Shown here: positions 1,112 to 47,526 of the stretch, one piece after another
How the letters are laid out: each line of letters opens with the position of its first letter
Numbering within the stretch: the first letter of the stretch is position 1
Sequence record: NC_031047.1
Direction: 5' to 3' (one strand)
Length of the DNA: 64,000 nucleotides
From: Escherichia phage HY03
Translations under genes and position numbers: made by a program
Notes under the pieces: model-generated
The model's input: only the letters and a program-made list of their open reading frames with translations
Database searches by the model: none
What the model was told of the DNA's origin: nothing

Positions 1112-1630
1112 ATGGCTTACTTTAACGAATGTAGTCAACTGATCGAAGGCGCTGATAAAGCTCAAAATGAATACTGGGATATTCTTGGTGATGAAAAAGA
1201 CCCGCTGCAGGTAATGCTTGACATGCAGAAATCTCTGCAGATTCGTTTAGCTAAAGATAAACCTGAATATAACCGTCATCCTGATGATTTGGCTACCGCA
1301 GGTGAAGTTGTTGATTGGCTGCGCAATCAGAAAGACTATATTGATGATGAATTCCGCGAACTTCTGACTTCTCTTGGTGGTATGAGCAATGGCGAAAAAG
1401 ATGCATCTGCTGTATGGAAACCTTGGAAGTCGCAGCATGGTGAACGCCGTGAAACTCTGATTACTGATTTGTCTCCACAAGACCAATTGGAAATTAAATT
1501 TGAAATGATTGATATTCTCCATTTCGTTCTGAACATGTTCCAAGGTCTTGGTCTTACAGCAGAAGAAATTTTTAAACTTTATTATCTGAAAAATGCTGAA
1601 AACTTTGCTCGTCAAGACCGAGGTTATTAA
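1112..1630 (+). CDS. 56: dCTP/dCDP pyrophosphatase gp56
   Basis: 172 aa from ATG 1112 (SD GGAAAAA upstream), MAYFNEC...FARQDRGY; matches recalled T4 gp56. ORF-track start 1097 is TTG. Confidence 0.9.
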   Translation: MAYFNECSQLIEGADKAQNEYWDILGDEKDPLQVMLDMQKSLQIRLAKDKPEYNRHPDDLATAGEVVDWLRNQKDYIDDEFRELLTSLGGMSNGEKDASAVWKPWKSQHGERRETLITDLSPQDQLEIKFEMIDILHFVLNMFQGLGLTAEEIFKLYYLKNAENFARQDRGY

Positions 1631-1830
1631 TGGCTCGTTTAAATAAACGTCAACTTAAGAAAGCCCACAAGAAACGTATTGACCAGCTATTTAAAAATTA
1701 TGACAAGGAGCTCACATACGAGCTCTTATCTAATCAGCTCCACAAAGCTTACACAATTAAAACTGGACATATACAATTAGGTAAGGTGCATGAAGAAGCC
1801 TTAAAATTAATTATAGAGCATTCAAAATGA
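1630..1830 (+). CDS. small early hypothetical protein (soc.2 position)
   Basis: 66-aa basic ORF, ATGA overlap with gene 56 stop. Confidence 0.5.
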   Translation: MARLNKRQLKKAHKKRIDQLFKNYDKELTYELLSNQLHKAYTIKTGHIQLGKVHEEALKLIIEHSK

Positions 1831-2036
1831 AATTTGATTTTTATGCATGGCAAAAAGCCGGGAGACCGGCTAGTCGAGCATTTGGTTCTGATGGATATAA
1901 TATTAGAGCTCATTGGAAGTTTAATGCTCCAGCCGATTATTCTCCGGTAATTATTAACGGTGATGTTGTTATATTAACTAAAATTGGGTATTTTAACGTT
2001 CCGCAAGAATTTATTATAAATAATCATGTAATTTAA
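1827..2036 (+). CDS. small early hypothetical protein (soc.1 position)
   Basis: 69-aa ORF, ATGA overlap with the upstream ORF. Confidence 0.5.
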   Translation: MKFDFYAWQKAGRPASRAFGSDGYNIRAHWKFNAPADYSPVIINGDVVILTKIGYFNVPQEFIINNHVI

Positions 2037-2941: not shown

Positions 2942-3435
2942 GGAAAATTATGGAAGCGATTTTGTTTGAAATGTATATTAGCAGTAATAGTATGTCGTTT
3001 GTCAAGGATGTTCCAATTACCGTAGCAGTAATGATTGATAAAAGATATGATAATAACATGTATCTAGTAGAAGATTTTATTTCAATGCCAGTTCCAGAAG
3101 ATGTTGAAATAAAACTTAAAAAGATCGGAATTATTGAAACTGTACGAAATTCTCCATTTATGTCAATTCAAGCATTTACTAAATCTAACTATATTGATGT
3201 TGCTGAAGCATATTATAATAATAAACCGTTATCCTTCTATTCATATGATTCAATATATGATTGGAAAATAGATAAAGGAAATAAATTTATAATTACGGAC
3301 GAAAGCGCGCTATCATATTTTATTACCTCTTTATGGAATAATTTAAATCCAAATTTGCTAAAAATTCATAAATTTAACGATGCTCCTACTATTGTTTTAG
3401 GTAAAATAAATGAAAGCTTTCAAGAAGATTCTTGA
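2938..3435 (+). CDS. hypothetical early protein (mrh-region ORF)
   Basis: 165-aa ORF in the soc-modB interval. Confidence 0.5.
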
Positions 3436-3613
3436 ATGGTTCAATAGACCAAACTCAATGTACATTGATGATGGTTGGGTTGAACAGGCAAATAAAGAAA
3501 TGCAGAACGAATCGGAAGAATGGATGAAATCAATGATTAGTGCTGAGAAAGAAAAGAAATTAGAACGCTCAGCGCTTAAATTGATGAGAGACATCTATGG
3601 GGATAAATCGTGA
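3410..3613 (+). CDS. hypothetical small protein
   Basis: 67-aa ORF, AGGT 7 nt before ATG. Confidence 0.4.
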
Positions 3614-3774
3614 ACAGAGATATGACGTTAGAAGAGGCCAAGGCTAAAGCAAATGAAGCACTGGATTTGCTTCTTAAAATTGGCAGTAAAATGATGGAAG
3701 AAAATGAGAAATATATCCAGGAAAACAAAATTCCCGATGGTCCATTAGTAGGCAAAAGGAAATCACATGATTGA
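3610..3774 (+). CDS. hypothetical small protein (GTG start; alternative ATG at 3622)
   Basis: 54-codon ORF filling the gap 3613..3767; stop overlaps next ATG. Confidence 0.3.
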
Positions 3775-4237
3775 AGTAGCAAAACACTATTCAATAGAAT
3801 TTATGTCTAAAGAAGGTAAATCAGTAAATACGCTTGATAAAAATTGCTCATTGATTATTCCTTTAGCAGAAAATCCGGATATTTTAATTAAAGATATAAA
3901 AGAAAGAAAATATCCAGAAAATATTATTCTAATTATAAAGCATACTGAAGATATTTTGCAGAATACTGATTCACCGTTTTCTTCTTCTGAAGCTTTAACT
4001 ATTAAAGGCTATAAAAGAGCTCATGAATATGGTCTTTTTGACCTGTTTGAAGACGATAAAGTTAAATTAGCGAGTCAACCTTCTAAAAGTAAAACATTCA
4101 TTATTGAAGATATTAAAGATATAAATGCATTTGTTAGGATGGTCTGGGCTCATTTTGATGTTGGACTACGCTGGAGAATGTCCGAAGAAGAAAGAAAGAT
4201 TGCTGAAGCTAATCGTCATTTTGGTTTTTATCGCTAG
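3767..4237 (+). CDS. hypothetical early protein
   Basis: 156-aa ORF, SD AAGGA before ATG. Confidence 0.5.
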
Positions 4238-9458: not shown

Positions 9459-9959
9459 ATGAAAATTTATCGTGTTGAATCATCGTTTAGTATTCTTAAT
9501 AATGAAGATGCTATAACAATACGTCGAAATCTTTGTGTTCAAATAACGCCGTACAGGAGTATAATAGATTCATGGAGCGAAGAGTGGCTATTACACGTAG
9601 GTTATGACAGACCTAATTTTATGCATCATAGCGATAATAATAAAAGAATTCCTTTACCACACGAAGACAAATTATTAGTTAAAAACGCTAATATAGCAAT
9701 TAATACTAAGTTCAAGAAAGATTATGTTGGAGTAGAATATCATATTCCAGGATGGTTTATAGCTCTTTATCATTTTGCTTTCGCTAGTGAATATGATATG
9801 ATGAGATGGTTCACACGAGAAGAGCGTGAAGAATTATCTTCTAAAGGATTTTATCTTGCTGTATACGAAGTGCCAGATGACCAAGTTATCATTGGCGGAC
9901 ATCAAGTAATGTTCCGTAAATCCCATGCTGAACTTATAGATTTTATTGAAATGAGATAA
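9459..9959 (+). CDS. hypothetical early protein (motB-region)
   Basis: 166 aa from ATG 9459 (ORF-track frame 9420..9959). Confidence 0.5.
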   Translation: MKIYRVESSFSILNNEDAITIRRNLCVQITPYRSIIDSWSEEWLLHVGYDRPNFMHHSDNNKRIPLPHEDKLLVKNANIAINTKFKKDYVGVEYHIPGWFIALYHFAFASEYDMMRWFTREEREELSSKGFYLAVYEVPDDQVIIGGHQVMFRKSHAELIDFIEMR

Positions 9960-9961
9960 TT

Positions 9962-10501
9962 ATGAAATTTAATTATAATCCTGAATACACACCAAATCCG
10001 GTAGCTAAACTGATTGATTTTGATGTTGTAAGCACTTATGTATGCCCTGTTAAACCACTGGAAATTAAGGAACCTACTATGACTACCGCTATTGAAATCG
10101 GCAAAATCTACAAACTGGTTGAAACTGAAATTAAAACTAATGCCTTGATTTCTGGTCATAAAACTCTGACTGATGTTTTTGGCGAAGGCGAGTTTGTGGT
10201 TAAAAGTTTTTCAAAAAGTAATTGGTATGATAAGAATAAAGCTTACGTGATTCGAGCACAACGCTTAGATAATGATGAAGTAATTAAAACTATAGTCTTT
10301 GAAGCAGAGCTTATCCTCTTCCAAGAATGCGATCCTACTGACCTTTTGACTCGTGCTGTAGCTATCAAGACACCATTTATTTCGGTCTGTGGTTGGGTAA
10401 CAGACCAGTGGATTGAAGATGGTGTTGAACTCCTGAACGTTGTTCATGCAGGTGATTTTAGCGTAGTACCTCGTAGTGCAGTAGTAGCTATTTTGAATTA
10501 A
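9962..10501 (+). CDS. hypothetical early protein, paralog of ORF 10578
   Basis: 179 aa; C-terminal ITDQWIEDGVELLNVV resembles ITDQWVEDGVKLYNAV of the next ORF. Confidence 0.5.
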   Translation: MKFNYNPEYTPNPVAKLIDFDVVSTYVCPVKPLEIKEPTMTTAIEIGKIYKLVETEIKTNALISGHKTLTDVFGEGEFVVKSFSKSNWYDKNKAYVIRAQRLDNDEVIKTIVFEAELILFQECDPTDLLTRAVAIKTPFISVCGWVTDQWIEDGVELLNVVHAGDFSVVPRSAVVAILN

Positions 10502-11877: not shown

Positions 11878-12054
11878 ATGCCGCTTTATGATTATAAATG
11901 TCAATCCAAAGACTGTGCAAAAGAATACGAAAAAATCAAGAAAATTTCTGAAAGAGATACTGATGTATGTCCTGATTGTCATCGGATTGCTATTCGGTTA
12001 GTTTCCGCTCCTAAGCATGTGAACGGTGGATTTTACGACTTACTTAAAGGGTAA
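11878..12054 (+). CDS. small zinc-ribbon protein (CxxxxC ... CxxC)
   Basis: 58-aa ORF MPLYDYKCQSKDCAKEYEKIKKISERDTDVCPDCHRIAIR...; below the ORF-track length cutoff. Confidence 0.5.
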   Translation: MPLYDYKCQSKDCAKEYEKIKKISERDTDVCPDCHRIAIRLVSAPKHVNGGFYDLLKG

Positions 12055-12056
12055 TT

Positions 12057-12314
12057 ATGAAATATGTTAATCGTTCTATCGCAGCATTAGTATTAGCAGT
12101 GTCTTTAGTAGGATGTACTGATGCTGATAATGCAACCAAAGTTTTGTCTTCAAGCGGTTTTACTAATATTGAAATCACTGGATATAATTGGTTCGGTTGC
12201 TCTGAAAATGATTTCCAGCATACTGGATTTCGTGCTATTGGGACCTACTGGGCAGAAAGTAGAAGGAACAGTATGTTCTGGACTATTCTTCAAGGATTCG
12301 ACTATCCGTTTTAA
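12057..12314 (+). CDS. putative lipoprotein (39.1 position)
   Basis: 85 aa; signal peptide plus lipobox LVGC. Confidence 0.55.
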   Translation: MKYVNRSIAALVLAVSLVGCTDADNATKVLSSSGFTNIEITGYNWFGCSENDFQHTGFRAIGTYWAESRRNSMFWTILQGFDYPF

Positions 12315-12317
12315 ATA

Positions 12318-12335
12318 AAAGGCCTTCGGGCCTTT
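12318..12335 (+). other. C(UUCG)G stable RNA hairpin after the lipoprotein ORF
   Basis: AAAGGCC-TTCG-GGCCTTT; same sequence recurs at 62488..62505. Confidence 0.6.
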
Positions 12336-12360
12336 AGCTTTATGATTACCGGAGTATAAT
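12333..12360 (+). promoter_or_regulatory. candidate MotA-dependent middle promoter for gene 39
   Basis: MotA-box-like TTTAGCTTTA about 12 nt upstream of TATAAT 12355..12360. Confidence 0.35.
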
Positions 12361-12387
12361 ATTCCCGAAACCAAACGAGGATAAGTG

Positions 12388-13938
12388 ATGATTAAGAATG
12401 AAATTAAAATTCTGAGCGATATTGAACATATCAAAAAGCGTAGCGGCATGTACATTGGCTCTTCTGCTAATGAAATGCATGAGCGCTTTCTGTTTGGTAA
12501 ATGGGAAAGTGTTCAGTATGTACCTGGTCTTGTTAAGCTTATTGATGAAATTATCGATAACTCAGTAGATGAAGGTATTCGTACTAAGTTTAAATTCGCA
12601 AATAAAATTAATGTTACTATTAAAAACAATCAAGTAACAGTTGAAGATAACGGTCGCGGTATTCCACAGGCGATGGTTAAAACACCTACCGGTGAAGAAA
12701 TTCCTGGTCCTGTTGCTGCGTGGACTATTCCAAAAGCAGGTGGTAACTTCGGTGATGATAAAGAACGCGTCACTGGCGGTATGAATGGTGTTGGTTCTAG
12801 TTTGACAAACATTTTTTCTGTGATGTTTGTCGGTGAAACTGGTGATGGTCAAAATAATATTGTAGTTCGTTGTTCAAATGGCATGGAAAATAAATCATGG
12901 GAAGATATTCCCGGAAAATGGAAAGGAACTCGTGTTACTTTCATTCCTGATTTTATGTCATTTGAAACTAATGAGTTGTCCCAAGTTTATCTTGACATTA
13001 CATTAGATCGTCTCCAGACACTTGCTGTTGTTTATCCTGATATTCAATTTACCTTTAATGGTAAAAAGGTTCAGGGCAATTTTAAGAAATATGCACGCCA
13101 ATATGATGAACATGCTATCGTTCAAGAACAAGAAAATTGTTCTATTGCGGTCGGTCGTTCACCGGATGGTTTTCGTCAATTAACATACGTCAATAACATT
13201 CACACTAAGAATGGTGGTCATCACATTGACTGTGTTATGGATGATATTTGTGAAGACCTTATTCCACAAATCAAACGTAAGTTCAAAATTGATGTAACTA
13301 AAGCACGTGTCAAAGAATGTTTGACTATCGTTATGTTTGTTCGTGATATGAAAAACATGCGATTTGATTCTCAAACTAAAGAACGACTTACTTCTCCTTT
13401 TGGTGAAATTCGTAGTCATATTCAACTTGATGCTAAAAAGATTTCACGTGCTATTTTAAATAATGAAGCAATTTTAATGCCGATTATTGAAGCTGCTTTG
13501 GCTCGTAAATTGGCGGCAGAAAAAGCAGCAGAAACTAAAGCAGCTAAAAAGGCTTCTAAAGCTAAGGTTCATAAACATATTAAAGCGAATCTTTGCGGTA
13601 AAGATGCTGACACTACTCTTTTCTTGACTGAGGGTGATTCGGCTATCGGATATCTTATTGATGTTCGTGATAAAGAACTTCACGGCGGTTATCCATTGCG
13701 TGGTAAAGTTCTTAATAGCTGGGGTATGTCATATGCTGATATGCTTAAAAACAAAGAACTATTTGATATTTGCGCAATCACTGGATTAGTTCTTGGTGAA
13801 AAAGCGTTTGAAGAAAAAGAAGACGGTGAGTGGTTTACTCTCGAACTAAATGGTGATACAATTATTGTAAATGAAAATGATGAAGTACAGATTAATGGTA
13901 AATGGATAACAGTAGGTGAATTACGAAAAAATCTATAA
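12388..13938 (+). CDS. 39: DNA topoisomerase II large subunit gp39 (N-terminal ATPase part of the split gene)
   Basis: 516 aa from ATG 12388 (SD GAGGA); GHKL ATPase motifs; ends where mobA begins. Confidence 0.95.
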   Translation: MIKNEIKILSDIEHIKKRSGMYIGSSANEMHERFLFGKWESVQYVPGLVKLIDEIIDNSVDEGIRTKFKFANKINVTIKNNQVTVEDNGRGIPQAMVKTPTGEEIPGPVAAWTIPKAGGNFGDDKERVTGGMNGVGSSLTNIFSVMFVGETGDGQNNIVVRCSNGMENKSWEDIPGKWKGTRVTFIPDFMSFETNELSQVYLDITLDRLQTLAVVYPDIQFTFNGKKVQGNFKKYARQYDEHAIVQEQENCSIAVGRSPDGFRQLTYVNNIHTKNGGHHIDCVMDDICEDLIPQIKRKFKIDVTKARVKECLTIVMFVRDMKNMRFDSQTKERLTSPFGEIRSHIQLDAKKISRAILNNEAILMPIIEAALARKLAAEKAAETKAAKKASKAKVHKHIKANLCGKDADTTLFLTEGDSAIGYLIDVRDKELHGGYPLRGKVLNSWGMSYADMLKNKELFDICAITGLVLGEKAFEEKEDGEWFTLELNGDTIIVNENDEVQINGKWITVGELRKNL

Positions 13939-14734
13939 TGACTTAATAGCGCGGGGTAAAACTCGCGTTTCTAAATTTAAAGGTGAAATTCACCATATCC
14001 TTCCAAGATCAATGGGAGGTTCTGATGATAAAGAAAATTTGGTAAAACTGACTTTTCGTGAACACTTTTTAGCACATTTTCTACTATATAAAATTCATCG
14101 TAATCGTGAAATGGCATATGCGATGAATAGAATGTTAAACACTGAAAAATATTTACGTTCTAGTAAATTATATGAAATTGCTAGAATTTACCATCAAAGA
14201 GCAGTATCTGAATGGTCAAAAAACTTTATGAAAGATAAAGTTTTAATGAGAAGTATTAAATCGGGTAAATGCGCCTTATTAATTAAAGGATCATTTAACC
14301 CAAAGGAATGGTGCGGTGTTAATAAAGGTGTTAAGCTTCCTGGAATTAAAGGCATGACATGCTTTAAAAATGAAAAAGGCGAAGTTTTTCGTCTTCATGT
14401 TAATGATCCACGCATTAAAGCTGAAAAATTAGTTGGTATTGGAAATACTGTTGCTGCTACTGCAAAAGCAGCTGAACTTGAAAAAGCGAAACCATGGTAT
14501 AATAAATCAGCGACAAATCCAGAGGCTGTAAAATTAATACCAAATTTATATGAATGGTACGTCACGAAATATGACCCCGATCATTATAAACGAACGGGAG
14601 TTGCTAAATGGAAATCAGTTAATAATATAACTGTGAATTCAAAATTATTCGGCCGAGCATTTAATGAATTTAAACGCGGCTGGATTCCTGATGAAAAGTT
14701 CTACGAGGTGTATAATGAAATTTGTAAAAATTGA
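13916..14734 (+). CDS. mobA: MobA HNH homing endonuclease inserted between topoisomerase segments 39 and 60
   Basis: 272 aa, MNYEKIYNDLIARG...EIHHILPRSMGGSDDKENLV...HF HNH motif; N-terminus paralogous to mobE (46885). Confidence 0.85.
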   Translation: MNYEKIYNDLIARGKTRVSKFKGEIHHILPRSMGGSDDKENLVKLTFREHFLAHFLLYKIHRNREMAYAMNRMLNTEKYLRSSKLYEIARIYHQRAVSEWSKNFMKDKVLMRSIKSGKCALLIKGSFNPKEWCGVNKGVKLPGIKGMTCFKNEKGEVFRLHVNDPRIKAEKLVGIGNTVAATAKAAELEKAKPWYNKSATNPEAVKLIPNLYEWYVTKYDPDHYKRTGVAKWKSVNNITVNSKLFGRAFNEFKRGWIPDEKFYEVYNEICKN

Positions 14735-15247
14735 TTCTTCTAGCATTGATATGAAAAAATATAAATCGCAGAACAATGTCCGTCGTTCTATTAAATCCTC
14801 TTCAATGAACTATGCGAATGTCGCTATTATGACAGACGCAGATCACGATGGATAGCCTTCGGGCTATCTATAGAAATACCTCATAATTAAGAGATTATTG
14901 GATTAGGTTCTATTTATCCTTCTCTGCTCGGATTTTTTAGTAATTGGCCAGAATTGTTTGAGCAAGGACGAATTCGTTTTGTCAAAACTCCTGTAATCAT
15001 CGCTCAGGTCGGTAAAAAACAAGAATGGTTTTATACAGTCGCTGAATATGAGAGTGCCAAAGATGCTCTACCTAAACATAGCATCCGTTATATTAAAGGA
15101 CTTGGTTCTTTGGAAAAATCTGAATATCGTGAGATGATTCAAAACCCAGTATATGATGTTGTTAAACTTCCTGAGAATTGGAAAGAGCTTTTTGAAATGC
15201 TCATGGGAGATAATGCTGACCTTCGTAAAGAATGGATGAGCCAGTAG
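14715..15247 (+). CDS. 60: DNA topoisomerase II small subunit gp60, decoded by translational bypass: join(14715..14852,14903..15247)
   Basis: Codons 1-46 end at GGA 14850..14852 followed by TAG; decoding resumes at TTA 14903 (LGSIYPSLLGFFSNWPELFEQGRIRF...), matching recalled T4 gp60. Confidence 0.93.
14850..14905 (+). other. gene 60 translational bypass element (take-off GGA, UAG, stem-loop, 50-nt coding gap, landing GGA)
   Basis: GGA-TAG at 14850..14855; hairpin GATAGCC-TTCG-GGCTATC 14851..14868; landing GGA 14900..14902. Confidence 0.93.
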
Positions 15248-15276
15248 TTTACTTTACCACAAGGATGTGGTATAAT
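15247..15276 (+). promoter_or_regulatory. T4-type early promoter upstream of rIIA.1 and rIIA
   Basis: GTTTAC 15247..15252, TG-n-TATAAT 15271..15276. Confidence 0.7.
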
Positions 15277-15301
15277 TAATTGGGCAAATGAGGATATTGA
15301 A

Positions 15302-15505
15302 ATGAAATCATATAGAGTAAATTTAGAACTTTTTGATAAAGCAGTTCATCGAGAATATAGAATCATTCAACGCTTTTTCGATATGGGAGAAGCCGAAGAA
15401 TTTAAAAACCGCTTTAAGGATATTAGAGATAAAATTCAATCCGACACCGCAACTAAAGATGAACTACTAGAAGTTGCTGAAGTTATTAAACGCAATATGA
15501 ATTAA
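15302..15505 (+). CDS. hypothetical protein (rIIA.1 position)
   Basis: 67-aa ORF directly upstream of rIIA. Confidence 0.55.
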
Positions 15506-15515
15506 TGAGGAAATT

Positions 15516-17693
15516 ATGATTATCACCACTGAAAAAGAAACAATTCTTGGTAATGGTTCTAAATCAAAAGCATTTAGCATCACAGCATCTCCTAAAGTAT
15601 TTAAAATTCTGTCATCTGATTTGTATACAAACAAAATTCGCGCAGTAGTCCGTGAATTAATTACTAACATGATTGATGCTCATGCACTTAATGGAAATCC
15701 TGAAAAATTTATTATACAAGTTCCTGGACGTTTAGACCCACGATTTGTTTGTCGAGATTTTGGTCCGGGTATGAGTGATTTTGATATTCAAGGTGATGAT
15801 AATTCTCCTGGTCTGTATAATTCATACTTCAGTTCATCTAAGGCTGAATCTAACGATTTCATTGGCGGATTTGGTTTAGGTTCTAAATCTCCATTTAGTT
15901 ATACTGATACATTTAGTATTACTTCGTATCATAAAGGTGAAATTCGTGGTTATGTAGCTTACATGGATGGTGATGGTCCACAGATTAAACCTACATTCGT
16001 AAAAGAAATGGGTCCAGATGATAAAACTGGTATTGAAATCGTAGTTCCAGTTGAAGAAAAAGACTTTAGAAACTTTGCTTATGAAGTTTCTTATATCATG
16101 CGACCGTTCAAAGATTTGGCTATCATTAATGGTCTTGACCGCGAAATTGATTATTTTCCGGATTTTGATGACTATTACGGTGTAAATCCAGAAAGATACT
16201 GGCCAGATCGTGGTGGATTGTATGCTATCTATGGTGGTATTGTTTATCCTATTGATGGTGTTATTAGAGACCGTAACTGGCTAAGCATTCGCAATGAAGT
16301 GAATTACATTAAGTTTCCAATGGGTTCACTTGATATTGCTCCATCACGTGAAGCTCTTTCATTGGATGATCGTACTCGTAAAAATATTATTGAACGAGTT
16401 AAAGAGCTTAGTGAGAAAGCATTTAATGAAGATGTAAAACGATTTAAAGAATCTACATCTCCTCGTCACACATACCGTGAATTGATGAAGATGGGGTATT
16501 CTGCTCGAGATTATATGATTAGTAATTCAGTCAAATTCACGACTAAAAATCTGTCATATAAAAAGATGCAGAGCATGTTTGAACCTGACAGTAAGTTATG
16601 CAATGCAGGGGTTGTGTATGAAGTAAATCTTGACCCTCGACTGAAACGCATTAAGCAAAGTCATGAAACTTCAGCCGTCGCATCAAGTTATCGTCTGTTT
16701 GGTATTAATACAACAAAAATTAATATCGTTATTGATGATATTAAAAATCGTGTTAATATTGTTCGTGGATTAGCACATGCGTTAGATGATAGTGAATTTA
16801 ATAACACTTTAAATATTCATCACAATGAGCGTCTTCTGTTTATTAATCCAGAAGTAGAATCGCAGATTGATTTACTCCCTGATATTATGGCGATGTTTGA
16901 AAGTGATGAAGTTAACATTCATTATTTGTCAGAAATCGAAGCTTTAGTTAAAAGCTATATTCCAAAGGTAGTTAAAAGTAAAGCTCCTCGTCCTAAAGCT
17001 GCTACAGCATTTAAGTTTGAAATTAAAGACGGGCGCTGGGAAAAAGAGGAATTATTTACGCTCACATCAGAAGCAGATGAAATTACTGGTTATGTAGCGT
17101 ATATGCATCGTTCTGATATTTTCTCTATGGATGGTACTACATCTCTTTGTCATCCATCTATGAATATTTTGATTCGTATGGCTAATCTTATTGGCATTAA
17201 TGAATTTTATGTTATTCGTCCGCTTTTACAGAAAAAGGTAAAAGAACTCGGTCAGTGCCAATGTATTTTTGAAACTTTGCGTGATTTATATGTAGATGCT
17301 TTTGATGATGTAGATTATGATAAGTACGTAGGTTATTCAAGTTCAGCTCAACGATATATTGATAAAATTATCAAGTATCCTGAGTTAGATTTTATGATGA
17401 AGTACTTCAGTACAGATGAAGTTTCTGAAGAATATACACGACTCGCTAATATAGTTAGTTCATTGCGCGGTGTATATTTTAATGGTGGAAAAGATACCAT
17501 TGGTCATGACATCTGGACAGTAACTAATCTTTTTGATGTATTATCAAATAATGCTTCAAAAAACAGTGATAAAATGGTTGCTGAGTTTACCAAGAAATTC
17601 CGCATTGTTTCCGACTTCATCGGTTATCGCAACTCTTTAAGTGATGATGAAGTTTCTCAAATCGCTAAAACTATGAAGGCCCTTGCGGCCTAA
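15516..17693 (+). CDS. rIIA: rIIA membrane-associated protein
   Basis: 725 aa; matches recalled T4 rIIA length and N-terminal sequence. Confidence 0.93.
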
Positions 17694-21643: not shown

Positions 21644-22972
21644 ATGCAACTGAATAATCGCGATTTAAAAAGTATCATTGATAATGAAGCATTGGCTTAT
21701 GCTATGTACACGGTTGAAAATCGTGCTATTCCAAATATGATTGATGGATTTAAGCCAGTTCAACGATTTGTTATTGCTCGAGCTCTTGATTTGGCGCGAG
21801 GAAATAAAGATAAGTTTCACAAACTCGCTTCTATTGCAGGTGGTGTAGCTGACCTTGGATATCATCATGGTGAAAACTCTGCGCAAGACGCGGGGGCTTT
21901 GATGGCTAATACTTGGAATAATAACTTTCCTCTGTTAGACGGTCAAGGAAACTTTGGTTCTCGTACTGTCCAAAAGGCAGCAGCAAGTCGTTATATTTTT
22001 GCTCGTGTAAGTAAAAATTTCTATAACGTATATAAAGATACTGAATATGCTCCAGTACATCAAGATAAAGAACACATTCCGCCTGCTTTCTATTTGCCTG
22101 TTATTCCTACTGTTCTTCTTAATGGCGTTTCCGGTATTGCAACTGGTTATGCAACTTACATTCTTCCTCATAGTGTTTCTTCTGTTAAGAAAGCTGTACT
22201 GCAAGCTCTTCAAGGAAAGAAAGTAACTAAACCGAAGGTAGAATTCCCAGAATTTCGTGGTGAAGTCGTTGAAATTGATGGGCAATATGAAATTCGTGGA
22301 ACATATAAGTTTACTTCACGAACTCAAATGCATATCACTGAGATTCCATATAAGTATGATCGTGAAACTTATGTGAGTAAAATCTTAGACCCGCTTGAAG
22401 ATAAAGGCTTCATTACATGGGATGATGCTTGTGGTGAGCATGGCTTTGGCTTCAAAGTTAAATTCCGAAAAGAATACTCTTTGAGCGATAATGAAGAAGA
22501 ACGCCATGCAAAAATCATGAAAGACTTCGGGTTGATTGAGCGTCGTTCCCAAAATATTACCGTTATTAATGAGAAAGGAAAGCTGCAAGTTTACGATAAC
22601 GTAGTTGATTTAATCAAAGACTTCGTTGAAGTTCGTAAAACTTATGTCCAAAAACGAATTGATAACAAAATCAAAGAAACTGAATCAGCATTTCGTTTAG
22701 CCTTTGCCAAGGCACATTTCATTAAGAAAGTAATTTCAGGTGAAATTGTTGTGCAAGGTAAAACTCGCAAAGAACTGACCGAAGAACTTTCTAAAATTGA
22801 TATGTATTCTTCTTATGTTGATAAACTAGTCGGAATGAATATTTTTCATATGACTTCCGACGAAGCAAAGAAACTTGCTGAAGAAGCTAAAGCTAAGAAA
22901 GAAGAAAACGAATATTGGAAAACTACTGATGTAGTTACAGAATACACCAAAGATTTAGAGGAAATCAAATGA
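21644..22972 (+). CDS. 52: DNA topoisomerase II medium subunit gp52
   Basis: 442 aa; GyrA-type breakage-reunion domain; matches recalled T4 gp52. Confidence 0.93.
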   Translation: MQLNNRDLKSIIDNEALAYAMYTVENRAIPNMIDGFKPVQRFVIARALDLARGNKDKFHKLASIAGGVADLGYHHGENSAQDAGALMANTWNNNFPLLDGQGNFGSRTVQKAAASRYIFARVSKNFYNVYKDTEYAPVHQDKEHIPPAFYLPVIPTVLLNGVSGIATGYATYILPHSVSSVKKAVLQALQGKKVTKPKVEFPEFRGEVVEIDGQYEIRGTYKFTSRTQMHITEIPYKYDRETYVSKILDPLEDKGFITWDDACGEHGFGFKVKFRKEYSLSDNEEERHAKIMKDFGLIERRSQNITVINEKGKLQVYDNVVDLIKDFVEVRKTYVQKRIDNKIKETESAFRLAFAKAHFIKKVISGEIVVQGKTRKELTEELSKIDMYSSYVDKLVGMNIFHMTSDEAKKLAEEAKAKKEENEYWKTTDVVTEYTKDLEEIK

Positions 22973-26805: not shown

Positions 26806-26813
26806 TATTTATT
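26806..26813 (-). promoter_or_regulatory. possible late promoter for t (AATAAATA, one mismatch to TATAAATA)
   Basis: Lies about 19 nt upstream of the t start codon on the - strand. Confidence 0.3.
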
Positions 26814-26817
26814 CAAA

Positions 26818-27612
26818 TTATACTCTTGGACCATATATTGCTCCAACATTTTGCCATGTTGGAGCTGATCCTATAACAGCATATCCGGCAGCGCCACCAG
26901 CTCCAACTTTTAGAACTTTACCGCCATCATGCCAGGCATTTTGTCCATTTGCGCCAGCATCACCACCCTGGCCAGAGTGAGCATTACCATAATTATAACC
27001 ACCTCCTGGGCCATCATAAGAAGCTGCGCCACCGGAATAACCTCCGCCTCCTCCTGGGCCAAATGGTCTTCCTCCACCGCCACCAATATCTTGCCACCTT
27101 GCGCCAGAGTGAGGACGATAAGCGATACCGCCACCACCGCCACCACCGCCACAAATTACTCCACCATTATTAATTCTTAATCGACCACCAATGTCATTTT
27201 GAATACAATGTCCACCCTGTTGACCATTACCATCTCCACCAGAATGAGTCCATCCACCTTGTCCACCTCTGCCCCACATATGAGCTCCACCGCTAATATT
27301 CAACTGAACATATTCATTTGGTGTATCTCCATACATGAAGAATAAAGGAACATCTCTAGAATATGATACCAAATTTCCTGTGATATTAAACACTATAGGT
27401 GCACTACCTGCCTCAAAACATCTATCTCGGAACCATTGACCATTAAAGTTATGGTCTGCTCCAAGTGTATGAATTACTTCAACAGATCGACCTATCATAT
27501 TACTCATCCAAAACGGAATTCCCATTCTCAATCTCTGCGCGGCACCACCCATCCAAGGGTCTCCAGTTTGTACCCTCGCAGACGATCCTACCCACGGTCC
27601 TGTTACTGCCAT
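26818..27612 (-). CDS. 38: gp38 tail-fibre adhesin, T2-type
   Basis: 264 aa from ATG 27612 (SD GGAGG); conserved Gly-rich islands GGGGGGG and [14 protein letters not shown] separating variable segments; unlike the short T4-type gp38 chaperone. Confidence 0.85.
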
Positions 27613-27624
27613 ATAAACCTCCAA

Positions 27625-27638
27625 GGGGCCGAAGCCCC
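27625..27638 (-). other. GGGGC-UUCG-GCCCC hairpin between gene 37 stop and gene 38 SD
   Basis: Perfect 5-bp GC stem with UUCG tetraloop on the late transcript. Confidence 0.6.
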
Positions 27639-27643
27639 TCTTA

Positions 27644-30600
27644 TTATTTTAACAACGATTTAACTAATGCTTTAAGTTCTTCGATTTCTGATTTAAGTTC
27701 TGCAATTTCTGCAGTATGCTCATTGATTGCAGCTGTATTTAAACCAATTACACCGTTATAGTTCAAACGAAGTAAAGCTTCACCATCCGGGTCACCTTCA
27801 ACTAATTCAGGCAAAATAGCTTGAACTTCTTGAGCTATCAAACCAGCGTTAGGTTCCCATTTCTGATTACCTTCTTCATCTGTTCCACGTTTCTGCATAT
27901 AAGTGTAACCGTTAATTTTAGAAAGCTTCTGAGAAGCATTTTCAAATTTAACGAGGTCTTTTTTAACGCGAATATCAGAACGGACATAAACATCACGGAC
28001 AAACGTTGAATAGCTGTCATTCGCCTGGACTAGATGACCGTGAGAAATAATCGCTTTATCAACTTCGGTCCACAAACCACCATGACTTCCCCATAGTCCT
28101 GAGTGTTCTTGATACATCGTACCCCATGATGCAATATGCTGTCCGTTAGCAAACATGTTAATACGACCATCACCACCATGAACTAATCCGGTATCATTAT
28201 CACCAATAACAAGACATGGTCCAGTCCATGCAGGGTCACCTCCACCAGCTGATAATCTTGCTCCAGTTTGAACCATGTTAGGAGCATACAGAACTCCATC
28301 GTGGTGGAATTCATATATAGCTTGCGGGTCAGAACCATTTTCCTGGTTACCTACACGAATAATACCTTGTGCCCATTTGTTAGTGATACGGCGCATACCA
28401 AAATCTACACCAGATACGTATCCTTCATTCGTAATAACAGATTTTCCTTTGATAATTGGATAATAACTATCATTACCGACGTAGCCAAAATCCACAAATA
28501 TCGGAGCTTCTTGACGCCATTGACTTCCCCAATCGCCAGCTTGGTGCGCAGTCCAGTATGCTCCATTTATATAAAGACGATCCCTATTAAAATTAAAAGT
28601 AGCAGACCCTTGAGGAGATAAAGCAATTTCTCCGACCTCATTAATGTTAACACCGCTGTTAGTTTGGAAACTGTAAAATGATATAGTATTATCGGCGCCG
28701 CCGTTACCAACATACCAGTTATCAACGCCTGCTTTTTGTCCTTTCATATAACCGGATTCGCTTGCAGCACTATTAATAACAATAACATCCGAGTTGGCAT
28801 TAAGAGTTAAACGGCCTGTCATTGTATCGCCTTCTTTCGAAACACGAGTCGCAATAGCATCGCGAATATTTGTAATGTCTCCTGCTGCAGTAAACGTTTT
28901 CCAGATATCAGACCAGATGTTACCATTGCGAGCAATAGTAGCTTCGCCGCCGCCGACAGAAACGTTATCTGGGAAGTTAACAGTACCGTCTTGATTAAAA
29001 CGAGACGTATGGCCTTGTGAACCATCTTCTTTCAGATGATGAATAACGAATGTACCAGAATTAATTTCAGTACCTAAAGACCAAACTGCTTTACCATTTA
29101 AGAATTTCTGTTTAACAATAGGATAATATTTGCTTACAGCATCATCATCAATTTCCTGGAAAATAGGAGCCGCTTGAGCATATTGAACGGCATAACCTCC
29201 AGCCCCAGCTCCATGACCAGCAAATTTAATATAGCCATTTGCTGCGAACGTATTGTAACTTGATTGTAAATCTGGAATAGTAACTTTACCAGTATCTAAA
29301 GCCATACTAAACGGGCGAAGTGGACCGATATCGCCGTGTTTACCTTCACCGTAAGCAGTTGGAATAATATGAAGACTGCCTTCTGAACGTCTAAAAATGG
29401 CTCCATAATCTGCATTCCAAATGCGAAGACCATTTACAGCATTTGTCGCGATTTCACCGGCTGCGCTGATTGTACCGTCAAATGTAGCATTTTTTACTAC
29501 TGTCAAGTTTTCATTAACAATCTGGGTGCCATTTATAACCGATTCGACTTTACCTGCAGTTGTTCGTTGAATATAACTCATCCAGCTAGTTGCATCAGAA
29601 ATTTCCATGACATTTTTGCGATTACCTTCGCTAGGATTAATAAATGTATTACCCCACACAGAAATTGTCATGTTATCCACAGAACTACTACCTGTTGTGT
29701 TACCTCTAAACATCAGCGTAGAAGAATTATTACGACCATCAATATTAACAGAACCACCAATAACGTCAATATTACCAGGAGTAACTAACAAACCGCCGTG
29801 AGTATTAATGTTTGTGACACCTTTACCGCGGAAATAGTGATGATATCTACCGCCTTGATAATATCCCAAAAGAGTCTGACCATCTCCAAACGCGTTATTA
29901 TCATGATATGTAACAACAGTAGCGAGAGCATAGTTTTCAGTAGGAGGAGTAGTTAAATCGGTTCCATTGGTAGAATATCCAGCTACAAATTTTCTTAGGC
30001 TAGTTGTTTCGCTAGGGCTAAATAAAAATGTTTTCGTTCCATTATTGACGCTGAAATAATATCCATCCTGGTGCCATTTAAATCCAGTATCATTATCCCC
30101 TAAAGCAATACTAGATGGTCCTAGTATTGAATAATCTTTATTGCCAGGTGTTAAACCGATAGAAATTGAGTGACTCGATTTAATTCCGCCGCTCCATGTA
30201 AATGACCAAAGATAAGCGTCTAGCCCATCTCCGCTGTACCAAGTTATTCCATCATTATCTTTAACTTCATGGAAAATGCCAGAACCGACTGCATTACGCA
30301 TGACACGGAGATGATTAATAGCAGTAGTGCTTTCAGACAGTGGAACATTATCTGCCATCGAATAAATGTCATAATCACCTGTAGATTTATTATTAGTAAT
30401 GACTTTGTTGGTCAAAATCTGAGGAGTTGACATAGATTTCCATGCTGATACTTCAGGTGAAGTAAATAGGCCACTACCTGAAAATGCATAAGTGCTTTCG
30501 CTACCAGCGGCGTAGTCTTGAACCCTGATATTAAGTACTTGTGTAGTTAAACCGTCATTAGCAGGAGAAAAAATAATACCGCGTTCACGGTCGGCGGAAT

Positions 30601-30973
30601 CATGAAAACGAACGTGTGCCGTTCCTGAACTTTTTGTAATAAGTTCTCCACCCTCAGTCATAATCTGCCCGGCGGCAATAATATCGCGAGTTACTCGAGC
30701 AATACCAGTTAAATTAAAATTACCTGTCTGAGTGAAAGTGCCATTTAAAGTATAATCACCAGTTTGATTATAGTTTCCTTTATGAATAACATTTCCGTCA
30801 ATACTACCGCCCTTAGCAAAACCCAGATCAATGATATTTCCTTGGTCATCTTTAGTAAAAAGTACGCGGTCTTTTAAATTTATAGCCAATTCACCTTCGG
30901 CTAATACTGAAGCGGCAGGACGTGCTCCTGCGGTTTTGCTTCTTTTAAATTGTATTTGTTTTAAAGTAGCCAT
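27644..30973 (-). CDS. 37: gp37 long tail fibre distal subunit with C-terminal intramolecular chaperone domain
   Basis: 1109 aa; N-terminus [13 protein letters not shown]...[17 protein letters not shown] matches gp37; C-terminal ~110 aa carry an S74-like signature. Confidence 0.9.
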
Positions 30974-38310: not shown

Positions 38311-38960
38311 TTAAACTCCGCATGCCTGCTGGTGGTGAAAGATATATTGATGGTAAATCAGTTTATAAATTATACTTAATGATAAAACAACACATGAATG
38401 GAAAGTATGATGTAATTAAGTATAATTGGTGCATGCGGGTGTCTGATGCCGCTTATCAAAAGCGAAGGGATAAGTATTTTTTCCAGAAGTTATCAGAAAA
38501 ATATAAATTAAAGGAACTTGCTTTAATCTTTATAAGCAATCTTGTTGCTAACCAAGATGCTTGGATTGGTGACATCTCTGACGCTGATGCACTTGTGTTT
38601 TATCGTGAATATATCGGACGCTTAAAGCAAATTAAATTTAAGTTTGAAGAAGATATTCGCAACATTTATTATTTTAGTAAAAAAGTTGAAGTTTCTGCTT
38701 TTAAAGAAATCTTTGAGTATAATCCAAAAGTTCAGTCGAGTTATATTTTTAAACTACTTCAATCGAATATAATTTCGTTTGAGACGTTTATCTTGCTTGA
38801 TTCATTTTTAAATATAATTGATAAACACGATGAACAGACTGATAATTTAGTCTGGAATAATTATTCTATAAAGTTAAAGGCTTATAGAAAAATTTTAAAT
38901 ATTGATTCACAGGAAGCTAAAAAAGTTTTTATTGAAACTGTGAAATCTTGTAAGTATTAA
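38307..38960 (+). CDS. 59: gp59 helicase loader
   Basis: 217 aa; matches recalled T4 gp59. Confidence 0.93.
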   Translation: MIKLRMPAGGERYIDGKSVYKLYLMIKQHMNGKYDVIKYNWCMRVSDAAYQKRRDKYFFQKLSEKYKLKELALIFISNLVANQDAWIGDISDADALVFYREYIGRLKQIKFKFEEDIRNIYYFSKKVEVSAFKEIFEYNPKVQSSYIFKLLQSNIISFETFILLDSFLNIIDKHDEQTDNLVWNNYSIKLKAYRKILNIDSQEAKKVFIETVKSCKY

Positions 38961-38968
38961 TTGCTTAT

Positions 38969-38976
38969 TATAAATA
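38969..38976 (+). promoter_or_regulatory. late promoter TATAAATA upstream of gene 32
   Basis: Exact TATAAATA about 100 nt upstream of the gene 32 ATG. Confidence 0.6.
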
Positions 38977-38993
38977 GATTATAATTATCTCAC

Positions 38994-39073
38994 TGACCAG
39001 CTATGAGGTCATACATCGTCATAGCACCAACTGTTAATTAAATTAAATTAAATTAAATTAAAAGGAAATAAAA
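38994..39073 (+). promoter_or_regulatory. gene 32 autoregulatory translational operator (pseudoknot plus UUAAA repeats)
   Basis: TGACC/GGTCA and GCTATGA/TCATAGC interleaved stems 38994..39025; (TTAAA)x5 at about 39036..39062 just upstream of the SD. Confidence 0.8.
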
Positions 39074-40402: not shown

Positions 40403-40789
40403 GTGGAAGTTGGAAAAACTTATATCATTAACCCTTTATTTAAAAATGACTTTGCTAACGAGTGCCGTTGCAATGTAATGATGCTAAATTTAATAGAGAA
40501 GCACGGACCTAGTTTTGTTGTAGATGAAATGGAAAGTGATGATTGTGCTGGTGAATGTGTGGTACGTGTAACTATGGAAGATGGTACTGAATACATGGCG
40601 GGTGGCCCACTTGAGACGTATTTTGAGATTTACTCTGAAGAATTCAAATACTTTACTGAGGTAACTTTAGAAAAGCCTCAATCCGCTAATGAAGGTATAG
40701 TTTCTGGCGTAACAAAAATTCACTGCATTGTTGACGAAAATAATGTAGACGAAATCATTGAACTTTTGCGAAAAACTTTTAAGGCCTAA
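40403..40789 (+). CDS. hypothetical protein (frd.2 position), GTG start
   Basis: 128-aa ORF, SD GAGGAAA before GTG. Confidence 0.5.
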   Translation: MEVGKTYIINPLFKNDFANECRCNVMMLNLIEKHGPSFVVDEMESDDCAGECVVRVTMEDGTEYMAGGPLETYFEIYSEEFKYFTEVTLEKPQSANEGIVSGVTKIHCIVDENNVDEIIELLRKTFKA

Positions 40790-40790
40790 T

Positions 40791-41051
40791 ATGACTAAAG
40801 ATGATTTCCTGGATGCGGTAGAAAAAGCTAGTGAGAAATTTGAAGTGATGGGTGTACGGGTCCATAAAGACAGAAATTACGGACTCGATATTCAAACGTA
40901 TTCGTTATGGCTTGTGGGTGAACACAGTCTTGTAACCAGTTTAGTTATGGGTGTCGATACCTATCCTCTATTAGTTAAGTTCAGAAGTATGGAAAAGGCT
41001 ACTAAAGAAATGATTAAGCTTGGTAAGTGGCTCGATAAAATTCAAAAATAA
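40791..41051 (+). CDS. hypothetical protein (frd.1 position)
   Basis: 86 aa from ATG 40791. Confidence 0.5.
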   Translation: MTKDDFLDAVEKASEKFEVMGVRVHKDRNYGLDIQTYSLWLVGEHSLVTSLVMGVDTYPLLVKFRSMEKATKEMIKLGKWLDKIQK

Positions 41052-41053
41052 TT

Positions 41054-41083
41054 GTTTACAGCAGGGTAGTAGTGTGATACTAT
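41054..41083 (+). promoter_or_regulatory. T4-type early promoter
   Basis: GTTTAC 41054..41059, TG-n-TACTAT 41078..41083. Confidence 0.7.
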
Positions 41084-41111
41084 TACCCTATCAACTACTG
41101 AGGAGAATAAA

Positions 41112-41364: not shown

Positions 41365-44064
<2,700 letters not shown>

Positions 44065-46885: not shown

Positions 46886-47526
46886 TGAATTATCAAAAAA
46901 TCTATAATGACCTAATTTCCCGAGCTCAGGCTCGGGAATCTTTATCAGAATATAAAGAGACACATCATATAATCCCTAGATGTATGGGAGGTTCTGATGA
47001 TAAGGAAAATTTAGTTGAATTAACAGGTAGAGAGCATTTTATAGCGCATTGGCTTTTATGTAAAATATATGACACTCCAGGATTAAAGAAAGCTTTTGGT
47101 TTAATGTGCTTGACTGGTAAAAATCGCTCATATAAAATTTCTTCTCAACTATACGAATTAGGTAGACGACGTTTGTCTGAAGCTGCTATAGGACGTGAAG
47201 TTTCTACAGAAACCAGAGAAAAGATAAGTAGAGCTCTTAAAGGAAGGAAATTTACTAAAGAGCATTTAGCTCGCATGAGAAAACCTAAAACTGAAGAAGC
47301 TAAAAAGAATATAGCTGCTGCTAAAGTCGGCGTGCTTAATCCAATGTATGGTACAATCTCTCCAACGAGAGATGTTCCTCATACTAAAGAAACTCGCGAT
47401 TTGATTTCTTTGAGAACTAAACAAGGTGCAGAGTATCCGCCGTGTCCGCATTGTGGAAAGAAAGTTAATAAAGGTAATGCTTTAAGATGGCATTATGATA
47501 AATGTAAATTTAAGGATTCTAAATGA
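46885..47526 (+). CDS. mobE: MobE free-standing HNH homing endonuclease
   Basis: 213 aa; ETHHIIPRCMGGSDDKENLV...HF HNH motif; sits between nrdA and nrdB; paralog of mobA. Confidence 0.8.
   Translation: MNYQKIYNDLISRAQARESLSEYKETHHIIPRCMGGSDDKENLVELTGREHFIAHWLLCKIYDTPGLKKAFGLMCLTGKNRSYKISSQLYELGRRRLSEAAIGREVSTETREKISRALKGRKFTKEHLARMRKPKTEEAKKNIAAAKVGVLNPMYGTISPTRDVPHTKETRDLISLRTKQGAEYPPCPHCGKKVNKGNALRWHYDKCKFKDSK

Follow-up and report, generated by a model that had tools for sequence, protein, structure and literature searches.

How is gp60 produced when the gene of the topoisomerase II large subunit is split by an endonuclease ORF and gene 60, its downstream piece, meets a stop codon after 46 codons? 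This question is raised by a locus of Escherichia phage HY03, found in a stretch of 64,000 nucleotides (sequence record NC_031047.1) that is designated here, at its full length, as the window. The phage is almost certainly a T4-like Tequatrovirus in which the gene of the topoisomerase II large subunit was invaded by a MobA element and in which gp60 is made via programmed bypassing. The locus is a clade-1 MobA/bypass element of the type reported by Bonocora 2011 and Manning & Atkins 2022, whose mechanism, mobility and spread are already described.

Organization of the Locus and Limits of the Insert

The anatomy of the locus was read directly on the DNA and comprises the following coding features and element borders:

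12388..13938, + strand: gene 39, 516 aa, encoding the N-terminal part of the large (GyrB-like) subunit of the split topoisomerase II (assigned by its ORF, Pfam, PHROG 543 and the T4T position)
13806..14911, + strand: MobA mobile element of 1106 nt, which takes the place of 64 nt in the unsplit gene 39
13807..13938, + strand: element-encoded C-terminal extension of gp39, 43 aa (FEEKEDGEWF...GELRKNL) and stop codon, without counterpart in gp39 of T2 or RB14
13916..14734, + strand: mobA, intact ORF of 272 aa for a predicted HNH homing endonuclease (GTG start, TGA at 14732-34)
14715..14852, + strand: first coding segment of gene 60, codons 1-46, carrying the nascent-peptide signal (ATG at 14715-17; translation MKFVKIDSSSIDMKKYKSQNNVRRSIKSSSMNYANVAIMTDADHDG)
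14805..14852, + strand: homR, the element's copy of the deleted TOPRIM segment, 16 codons (MNYANVAIMTDADHDG), 76-78% nucleotide identity to T2/RB14 nt 1427-1472
14903..15247, + strand: second coding segment of gene 60, codons 47-160 and stop codon (15245-47), Pfam TOPRIM_C

Gene 39 starts with ATG at 12388 and ends with TAA at 13936-38. Its product is recognized by Pfam (HATPase_c and DNA_gyraseB) and by PHROG 543 (E = 1e-229), and the GyrB-like domains of a type IIA topoisomerase (GHKL ATPase, transducer, TOPRIM C-terminal) are divided between gp39 and gp60. An intact ORF of gene 52, which encodes the partner subunit, is found at 21644..22972. The initial annotation had the gp39 ORF ending where mobA begins and gene 60 starting at ATG 14715 within the mobA 3′ end. 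Both statements hold, as mobA shares 23 nt with gene 39, read in another frame, and 20 nt with gene 60. The three genes thus use three different frames, the arrangement published for the element, in which an HNH ORF of 269-279 aa overlaps both flanking ORFs out of frame (Manning & Atkins 2022).

The limits of the insert are established by alignment to T2 and RB14, which have a single, uninterrupted gene 39 of 1818 nt, as the initial annotation expected of T2-type genomes. Identity to their gene is lost after 13805 and regained at 14912. All individual positions given in that annotation were right when re-read on the sequence, but its overall span (13916-15247) has to be replaced by 13806..14911, which starts 110 nt further upstream. 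Because the insert begins at 13806, the last 43 codons of gene 39 belong to it: residues 1-473 of gp39 are ancestral and residues 474-516 are not. The insert encodes also the first 46+3 codons of gene 60, with 14903..14911 of the second segment still derived from the element and the remainder corresponding to the ancestral 3′ end of gene 39. A size of 1106 nt and an insertion in the TOPRIM region fall within the published range for MobA elements, which replace 55-75 nt in this region of the topoisomerase II large-subunit gene and are 1097-1106 nt long (Manning & Atkins 2022). The same work describes an in-frame C-terminal extension of ~44 aa on ORF1 and an N-terminal extension of 44-46 aa, including homR, on ORF2; the counterparts here are a 43-aa tail on gp39, which is the conserved “CTE” of these authors, and a 46-aa head on gp60. 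According to the literature, the segment copied by homR holds the MobA nick site in T2.

Divergence from relatives is 2-5 times lower in the element than in its 5′ flank. In the ancestral part of gene 39, 43 of the 46 differences to T4T are synonymous, the mark of purifying selection. The whole cassette is present in 40 of the 658 phage records that have gene 39 homology.

The Predicted Joined gp60 Product

Two reading frames have to be joined for the synthesis of gp60. The gap that separates them has stop codons in all three frames and cannot, for this reason, be bridged by +1 or −1 frameshifting, which was rejected. TTA at 14903 opens the sequence LGSIYPSLLGFFSNWPELFEQGRIRF..., in frame with the ORF 14954..15247, and the decoding proposed initially to resume there yields residues 47-160 of T4 gp60. 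The joined protein of 160 aa is identical to T4 gp60 at 158 positions (the differences are V11I and L18S) and aligns end to end with T4 gp60 of PDB 8yo3. The unsplit 611-residue topoisomerase chain of PDB 8ylu was also matched. The exact junction is given by the unsplit T2 sequence, IAIMTDADHDG-LGSIYPSLLGFFSN, to which the join corresponds with zero residues gained or lost, reading ...DADHDG/LGSIYPS... as in the uninterrupted protein. The junction-spanning peptide is predicted to be ...IMTDADHDG-LGSIYPSLLGFFSNWPELFEQGR. After the gap, all four nucleotide differences to T4T are synonymous.

An alternative reading dispenses with bypassing: a 46-aa peptide ending at the TAG and a separate C-terminal protein starting downstream, for example at TTG 14954. 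Such a picture is conveyed by the automatic annotations of PEC04, JEP6, ELT1, F26, BF15, GRNsp7 and G50, which show two separate CDSs, and an ORF at 14954..15247 is indeed present. Homology to T2/RB14 begins, however, at TTA 14903, 51 nt upstream of that first possible start, and is seamless from the residue preceding the gap. There are 17 conserved post-gap residues encoded upstream of any in-frame ATG, GTG or TTG; a product initiated at 14954 would lack them and be separated from the TOPRIM DxD motif. The known bypass signals are all in place and do not differ from those of T4. We consider this reading extremely unlikely and retain bypassing as the route to gp60.

RNA Signals of the Bypass Region

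The signals proposed to direct bypassing are the following:

14813..14840, + strand: 5′ stem-loop upstream of take-off, predicted in 51-nt and 140-nt folds, sequence identical to T4T
14848..14871, + strand: take-off stem-loop, 10 bp and UUCG tetraloop, including the take-off codon and the stop codon
14850..14855, + strand: take-off codon GGA for Gly46 and, next to it, the stop codon UAG (TAG at 14853-55)
14853..14902, + strand: coding gap predicted to be bypassed, 50 nt, stop codons in all three frames, identical to the T4T gap
14891..14893, + strand: “mini Shine-Dalgarno” GAG, separated from the landing codon on its 3′ side by the 6-nt spacer ATTATT
14900..14902, + strand: landing codon GGA, the sole GGA in the gap

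The GGA at 14850-52 with its TAG in a stem-loop and the second GGA at 14900-02, as well as the exact 50-nt length of the gap, were all recovered on re-reading. Elements of this type have take-off and landing codons that a single tRNA reads and a stop or rare codon next to the former; here the pair is GGA/GGA, matched at Gly46, and the stop codon comes directly after the take-off codon. The GGG and GGC at 14861/14862 fall inside the hairpin. The role of GAG as a mini Shine-Dalgarno is taken from the literature on bypassing, in which the landing codon is preceded, at 5-7 nt and within AU-rich sequence, by a Shine-Dalgarno-like triplet, the configuration found here. The mRNA from 14781 to 14976, gap included, is identical to T4T, and the locus matches the T4 mobA-hop cassette named in the initial annotation at all 50 gap positions.

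Within the take-off hairpin, GATAGCC-TTCG-GGCTATC spans 14851..14868. The helix has a folding energy of -14.7 kcal/mol (z = -5.5) and none of 200 shuffles was as stable; of the 19-mer GGATAGCCTTCGGGCTATC, the window contains one copy where 0 are expected from 100 shuffles. Together with the base-for-base identity of the gap to T4T, these figures exclude a chance origin. Comparison of five distinct sequences from four phage clades revealed 100% pairing of the hairpin cells, and in three sequences both bases of one pair are replaced; the sample is small, and the same score is reached by 20 of 500 shuffles. Across clades, the third base of the take-off codon takes part in an A-U, U-A or G-C pair, and compensatory changes retain pairing in the cassettes of Salmonella, Proteus and Shewanella phages. 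Neither the 5′ stem-loop alone (z = -1.3) nor the downstream “forward slippage barrier” region (z = +0.7) is more stable than shuffles. They are listed because their sequence is identical to that of T4, where they were experimentally tested.

Group I introns are carried by td and nrdB within the same window, so that RNA splicing occurs in this genome and the 50 nt might in principle be lost from the transcript, through splicing or editing, ahead of translation. The segment is too short for a group I core, and an Rfam scan of 12000..15600 at E ≤ 1 returned no intron match, just two chance-level matches elsewhere in gene 39 (Rfam has no family for the bypass RNA element). The identical T4 gap is, according to the literature, transcribed in the mRNA yet untranslated, and a ribosome structure was solved stalled at the unspliced T4 take-off site (PDB 5np6). 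Removal at the RNA level is next to impossible on these grounds, leaving bypassing during translation as the preferred explanation.

Nascent Peptide and Haplotype

Save for V11I and L18S, the first 46 residues of gp60 match the nascent T4 chain of the ribosome take-off complex (PDB 5np6, chain C). The initial claim that the peptide matches the known bypass-stimulating signal is therefore correct for the key residues and not for strict identity with T4. Present in the head are Y16, Q19, V22, R24, S28, Y33, M39, T40, H44 and D45, as well as KKYK; these are reported ribosome exit-tunnel contacts or conserved positions (literature, cryo-EM). L18S adjoins the critical KKYK motif; the cryo-EM paper on bypassing yielded no results for a mutant of L18. 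The two substitutions are unlikely to matter for bypassing, because the I11/S18 allele is common to several phages (HY01/PEC04, JEP6 and pSe_SNUABM_01) and cassettes of the Salmonella, Proteus and Shewanella clades have Ala at position 18. V11I and L18S both lie at clade-variable positions.

The window combines this HY01-type peptide (I11, S18) with a T4-type gap, and no record identical over 14715..14920 was found in the phage collection. In HY01, PEC04, JEP6 and pSe_SNUABM_01, a C at 14869 converts a G-U hairpin pair into G-C, and a second in-frame UAG is lost through T at 14872. At these two positions the window has the T4 bases instead: U at 14869 keeps the G-U pair and A at 14872 keeps the second UAG. 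This minor haplotype is the sole new point of the locus, all else being already known. A recombination or co-conversion event within the cassette, with its breakpoint between 14780 and 14869, may lie behind it, and its bypass efficiency may differ measurably from that of both parents, an idea that we view as unlikely. If true, it would supply a natural allele to separate the peptide and RNA contributions to bypassing.

The mobA Gene

The 272-aa ORF reported initially as an HNH endonuclease is intact: MobA is identical to T4T MobA at 270 of 272 positions (99%) and matches the PHROG 655 homing-endonuclease family (E = 1.8e-57) and a PHROG HNH family (1.8e-11). The Pfam HNH profile (PF01844) scores 20.1 bits, marginally under its gathering score of 21.4. 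An HH(26-27)...N41...H50 motif can be recognized and lines up with MobE; residue 1 of MobA aligns with Met1 of MobE, with 57% identity over 95 aa that include HH...N...H. A sigma-70 promoter and terminator scan of 12100..15600 gave 8 promoter-like sites compared to 13.7 in shuffles, and no promoter is thus claimed for mobA or gene 60. Neither the T4 late-promoter core (TATAAATA) nor a Mot box was found in this scanned region around the cassette.

The cassette might also be a decaying remnant, with gene 60 poorly expressed owing to L18S/V11I or with mobA inactive. The two substitutions in the signal peptide, the label of mobA as a pseudogene in the T4 reference record (AF158101) and the lineages known to have lost the endonuclease (Manning & Atkins 2022) would fit with decay. 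The mobA ORF has nevertheless its full 272 aa, 99% identical to T4T, and the gene is intact in all ten resequenced relatives examined; the AF158101 “pseudogene” departs from it through 11 scattered insertions of single bases. Post-gap gp60 has accumulated synonymous changes only. S18 is common to several independently isolated phages, and position 18 is L, S or A in cassettes keeping all other signals. Decay is accordingly very unlikely. The MobA copy is probably still part of a mobile element, since the endonuclease is intact; its activity and the self-protection of the element are extrapolated from T4 experiments. Bonocora 2011 is reported to have found for T4/T2 that MobA nicks the cassette-free gene 39 and that the DNA of the element itself is protected by the gap.

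Proposed Mechanism

We infer bypassing and its efficiency from the experiments carried out with T4. The element splits the ancestral gene into genes 39 and 60, adds a 43-aa tail to gp39 and a 46-aa head to gp60, and separates codons 46 and 47 of gene 60 by a non-coding gap of 50 nt. During translation, the nascent peptide (KKYK...RR...S...Y...MT..H) would grip the exit tunnel and slow the ribosome. Once GGA-46 is reached and the A site is occupied by UAG, the UUCG hairpin would form and the peptidyl-tRNA-Gly release the mRNA. The ribosome would slide over 50 nt. GAG, 6 nt ahead of the second GGA, would then pair with the 16S rRNA and the tRNA re-pair at GGA 14900-02, decoding restarting at TTA 14903. 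In co-infecting phages, MobA would nick the cassette-free gene 39 and repair would copy the cassette in, the 50-nt gap shielding the element's own copy from MobA cutting.

Implications for Annotation

The main value of this analysis lies in annotation. Gene 60 should be written as join(14715..14852,14903..15247) and the last 43 codons of gene 39 annotated as insert. Public records of close relatives mostly give two unrelated fragments instead of a joined gene 60. With its S18/I11 peptide and T4-type gap, the locus is a further natural variant among the clade-1 cassettes used to learn which of the bypass signals can change. It raises no new question.

Comparison with Known Systems

For the T4 system, the literature cites Huang 1988, Weiss 1990 and Bonocora 2011. 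The T4 39/mobA/60 locus (T4T, HM137666) is alike in gene order, overlaps, frames and lengths. Its annotation maps one-to-one on the window, with 39, mobA, a gene 60 joined from two pieces and a misc_feature named “non-coding translational bypass region”, and the alignment to the T4 and T2 loci suggested in the initial annotation gives colinearity with the former and the junction of the unsplit gene of the latter. Relative to T4, the peptide carries V11I and L18S, gene 39 is 3.2% diverged, and the genome mosaic is different, the window being without segF or segG and having a full-length I-TevIII and another tail-fibre tip. The best overall match (98.2%) is to the clade-1 cassettes of HY01/PEC04 type, which share the I11/S18 allele, the 64-nt deletion and the element size; HY01 is the example cassette in the Manning & Atkins 2022 preprint.

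More distant cassettes are found in the Gelderlandvirus S16, the Proteus Bragavirus phages Pm5461 and SJ_PmiM, and the Shewanella phage Thanatos-1. All have the split gene, the HNH ORF and an N-terminal extension of ~45 aa, together with a Gly take-off codon followed by UAG, a CC-UUCG-GG hairpin and a purine-rich triplet before landing. They are 72-81% identical to the window at the nucleotide level, with Ala at position 18, compensating hairpin changes and take-off/landing pairs GGU/GGC, GGG/GGA and GGU/GGU.

The uninterrupted gene 39 (“60plus39”) of T2, T6 and RB14 is 96-98% identical outside the insert and encodes a protein that is alike at the junction. It lacks mobA, the tails and the gap, keeps the 64-nt target intact and has GGT, not GGA, at the Gly codon. 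MobE (46885..47526 in the window) is a free-standing HNH endonuclease of T-even phages whose N-terminal HNH domain is homologous to that of MobA; its gene lies between nrdA and nrdB, splits no gene and is without a bypass cassette.

Organization of the gene 39-mobA-gene 60 locus

The region 12300..15400 was read, its ORFs were listed and each coordinate of the initial annotation was checked by script. The features of the locus, together with a mobA homologue found elsewhere in the window, are as follows.

Features of the split topoisomerase locus and of the mobA homologue
12388..13938 (+): gene 39, from ATG 12388 to TAA 13936-13938 (ORF listing)
13806..14911 (+): mobile element, 1106 nt replacing 64 nt (breakpoints relative to T2 and RB14)
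13916..14734 (+): mobA, from GTG 13916 to TGA 14732-14734, 272 codons (ORF listing)
14715..14852 (+): gene 60 first segment, ATG 14715 and 46 codons ending with GGA 14850-14852, followed by TAG 14853-14855 (script check)
14851..14868 (+): hairpin sequence GATAGCC-TTCG-GGCTATC (script check)
14853..14902 (+): gap of exactly 50 nt, with the second GGA (14900-14902) at its end (script check)
14903..15247 (+): gene 60 second segment, from TTA 14903 to the stop at 15245-15247; translation begins LGSIYPSLLGFFSNWPELFEQGRIRF
46885..47526 (+): MobE homologue of 213 aa between nrdA and nrdB; first 95 residues 57% identical to MobA

mobA and gene 39 share 23 nt in differing frames, and the frame read from TTA 14903 is that of the mechanical ORF 14954..15247. 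The 19-mer of the take-off site (the codon GGA 14850-14852 that precedes the gap) occurs once in the window versus none expected. The initial annotation had proposed these positions for gene 39, mobA, the gene 60 start, the GGA-TAG and the hairpin, as well as the second GGA, the 50-nt gap and in-frame decoding from TTA 14903; the observation is confirmed in full.

A megablast search with 12385..15247 against 50,697 phage records gave some match in 658 records. Only 40 of these carry the whole stretch, all Tequatrovirus with 96.4-98.2% identity; PEC04 and HY01 rank first and many T4 records are found at 97.0-97.6%. The features map one-to-one to the annotated T4 record HM137666 (T4T). That record lists gene 39, describes mobA as "homing endonuclease, H-N-H family", writes gene 60 as a join of two pieces and, at the equivalent of 14853..14902, has a misc_feature "non-coding translational bypass region". 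The gap does not differ from that of T4T in an ungapped comparison. Upstream of it gene 60 departs from T4T only at 14745, 14767 and 14780, so that the mRNA from 14781 to 14976 is all T4 sequence. The one-to-one match and the identical gap bear out the assignment to the mobA-hop cassette described for T4, and the interpretation given initially is supported with small corrections.

The public records of PEC04, JEP6, ELT1, pSe_SNUABM_01, F26, BF15, GRNsp7 and G50 split gene 60 into two separate CDSs and differ in their choice of mobA start. Among the records examined the bypass is marked only in those of T4 and HY01. The Salmonella phage GRNsp7 (ON720975) has a gap of 51 nt; the added nucleotide is a T close to the equivalent of 14894, within the AU-rich part, and reflects either natural length variation or an error of sequencing. 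In the older T4 reference record, AF158101, a "mobA pseudogene" and a "gene 60.1" (3065..3861) show 11 scattered single-base insertions relative to T4T, mostly of G, a pattern that points to probable sequencing errors and not to a genuine pseudogene.

Limits of the mobile element

Phages T2 and RB14 have a single uninterrupted gene of 1818 nt, as had been stated for T2-type genomes. Identity to them (96-98%) is lost after 13805 and regained at 14912, which defines the element limits 13806..14911; within them a 46-nt island (14806..14851) retains 76-78% identity. Manning & Atkins give the same figures (1106 nt for 64 nt), with HY01 as example. The cassette therefore starts 110 nt upstream of the proposed 13916. 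With these limits, both the 43 codons at the end of gene 39 (FEEKEDGEWF...RKNL) and codons 1-46 of gene 60 are tails encoded by the element. The 9 nt following the landing codon (the second GGA) are still element-derived (GGT TCT versus GGA AGC in T2), and most of the gene 60 second segment is ancestral gene 39. Divergence from eight relatives is 0.6-1.7% in the element versus 2.5-4.0% in its 5′ flank, a difference that agrees with recent horizontal spread.

Probable single protein from the two segments

Joining the two segments yields the T2 sequence ...IAIMTDADHDG-LGSIYPSLLGFFSN... with no residue gained or lost. Many GenBank records annotate gene 60 as two separate polypeptides, a reading contradicted by this T2-colinear join, by 17 conserved post-gap residues that lie upstream of any in-frame ATG, GTG or TTG, by stops inside the gap in all three frames and by the pattern of synonymous changes: relative to T4T, the second segment has four nucleotide differences, every one synonymous, and ancestral gene 39 has 46, of which 43 are synonymous. 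The stops in the three frames also rule out a one-base frameshift across the gap. Excision of the 50 nt from the RNA is contradicted by the T4 literature; the gap itself has no intron features and no Rfam match. Decay of the cassette is likewise at odds with its intact ORFs and with the synonymous-only change in the second segment.

We infer the steps of bypass and mobility in this phage from its near-identity with T4, following the T4 literature. The nascent peptide would slow and hyper-rotate the ribosome; once UAG occupied the A site, the hairpin would form and peptidyl-tRNA-Gly would detach at GGA-46, after which the ribosome would slide. MobA would nick cassette-free gene 39 and the element would be copied in by repair, the gap shielding the element's own DNA copy from MobA.

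Signals in the mRNA and the nascent peptide

The take-off helix (14848..14871; 10 bp and a UUCG loop) has a folding energy of -14.7 kcal/mol (z = -5.5). In an ungapped alignment with the cassettes of Salmonella phage S16, Proteus phages SJ_PmiM and Pm5461 and Shewanella phage Thanatos-1 all helix positions are paired, in a small sample for which 20 of 500 shuffles were as good; at the third base of the take-off codon the pair varies between A-U, U-A and G-C. A GAG lies 6 nt 5′ of the landing GGA, the only GGA in the gap. By folding alone, the 5′ stem-loop and the downstream barrier had no unusual stability. The UUCG hairpin core CCTTCGGG occurs seven times in the window versus 0.42 expected (2309, 12323, 14856, 31683(-), 38203, 57693 and 62493), so the motif by itself is not bypass-specific. 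The copy at 12323 lies within a terminator-like hairpin immediately 5′ of gene 39.

The nascent peptide had been said to match the known bypass signal. It contains every residue described in the T4 bypass literature as a tunnel contact or conserved (Y16, Q19, V22, R24, S28, Y33, M39, T40, H44, D45 and KKYK), but differs from T4 by V11I and L18S. At position 18, T4 has L, the window, HY01, PEC04, JEP6 and pSe_SNUABM_01 have S, and the other clades have A; given this variation among cassettes, L18S is unlikely to affect bypass.

Topoisomerase and MobA proteins

gp39 has GHKL ATPase and GyrB transducer domains, joined gp60 a TOPRIM C-terminal domain, and both match PHROG topoisomerase families. 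Joined gp60 (160 aa) differs from T4 gp60 only by the two substitutions and aligns over its whole length with gp60 in the T4 topoisomerase II structures (PDB 8yo3); its residues 1-46 match the nascent chain of the ribosome take-off complex (PDB 5np6). The third subunit gene, gene 52, is an intact ORF of 442 codons (21644..22972).

MobA is identical to T4T MobA at 270 of 272 residues and matches the PHROG 655 homing-endonuclease family (1.8e-57); its score for Pfam HNH is slightly below the cut-off. It aligns with the window's MobE from residue 1 onward (57% over 95 aa), with an HH...N...H motif visible. Alignment from the first residue supports GTG 13916 as the true mobA start.

Comparison with T4 and other known systems

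Elsewhere in the window, the nrdB intron region encodes a full-length I-TevIII-like HNH ORF of 269 aa (MNYRKIWIDANG...; 48350..49159, +), whereas the I-TevIII of T4 is annotated as truncated; the window is ~477 nt longer than T4T at this site. The td intron/I-TevI region is present (41590..43906). T4 segF (between 56 and soc; 1590..2015 in the window) and segG (between 59 and 32; 38958..38997) are absent from the window, the segF position holding two small ORFs (1630..1830 and 1827..2036). Megablast gave no match to T4T for the roughly 4 kb of 26812..30807, which correspond to gene 38 and the distal part of tail-fibre gene 37, so the receptor-binding module is unlike that of T4. Two shorter stretches, 9947..10389 (motB.1/motB.2) and 40418..41098 (frd.1/frd.2), also gave none, differences of the mosaic kind that small early genes commonly show.

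No record in the phage collection searched is identical over 14715..14920. Only the precise combination of a peptide allele of HY01 type with a T4-type gap is new to the collection as a haplotype. The cassette itself is already known: publications describe its mobility and report it from about 14 close T4 relatives and five other phage clades.
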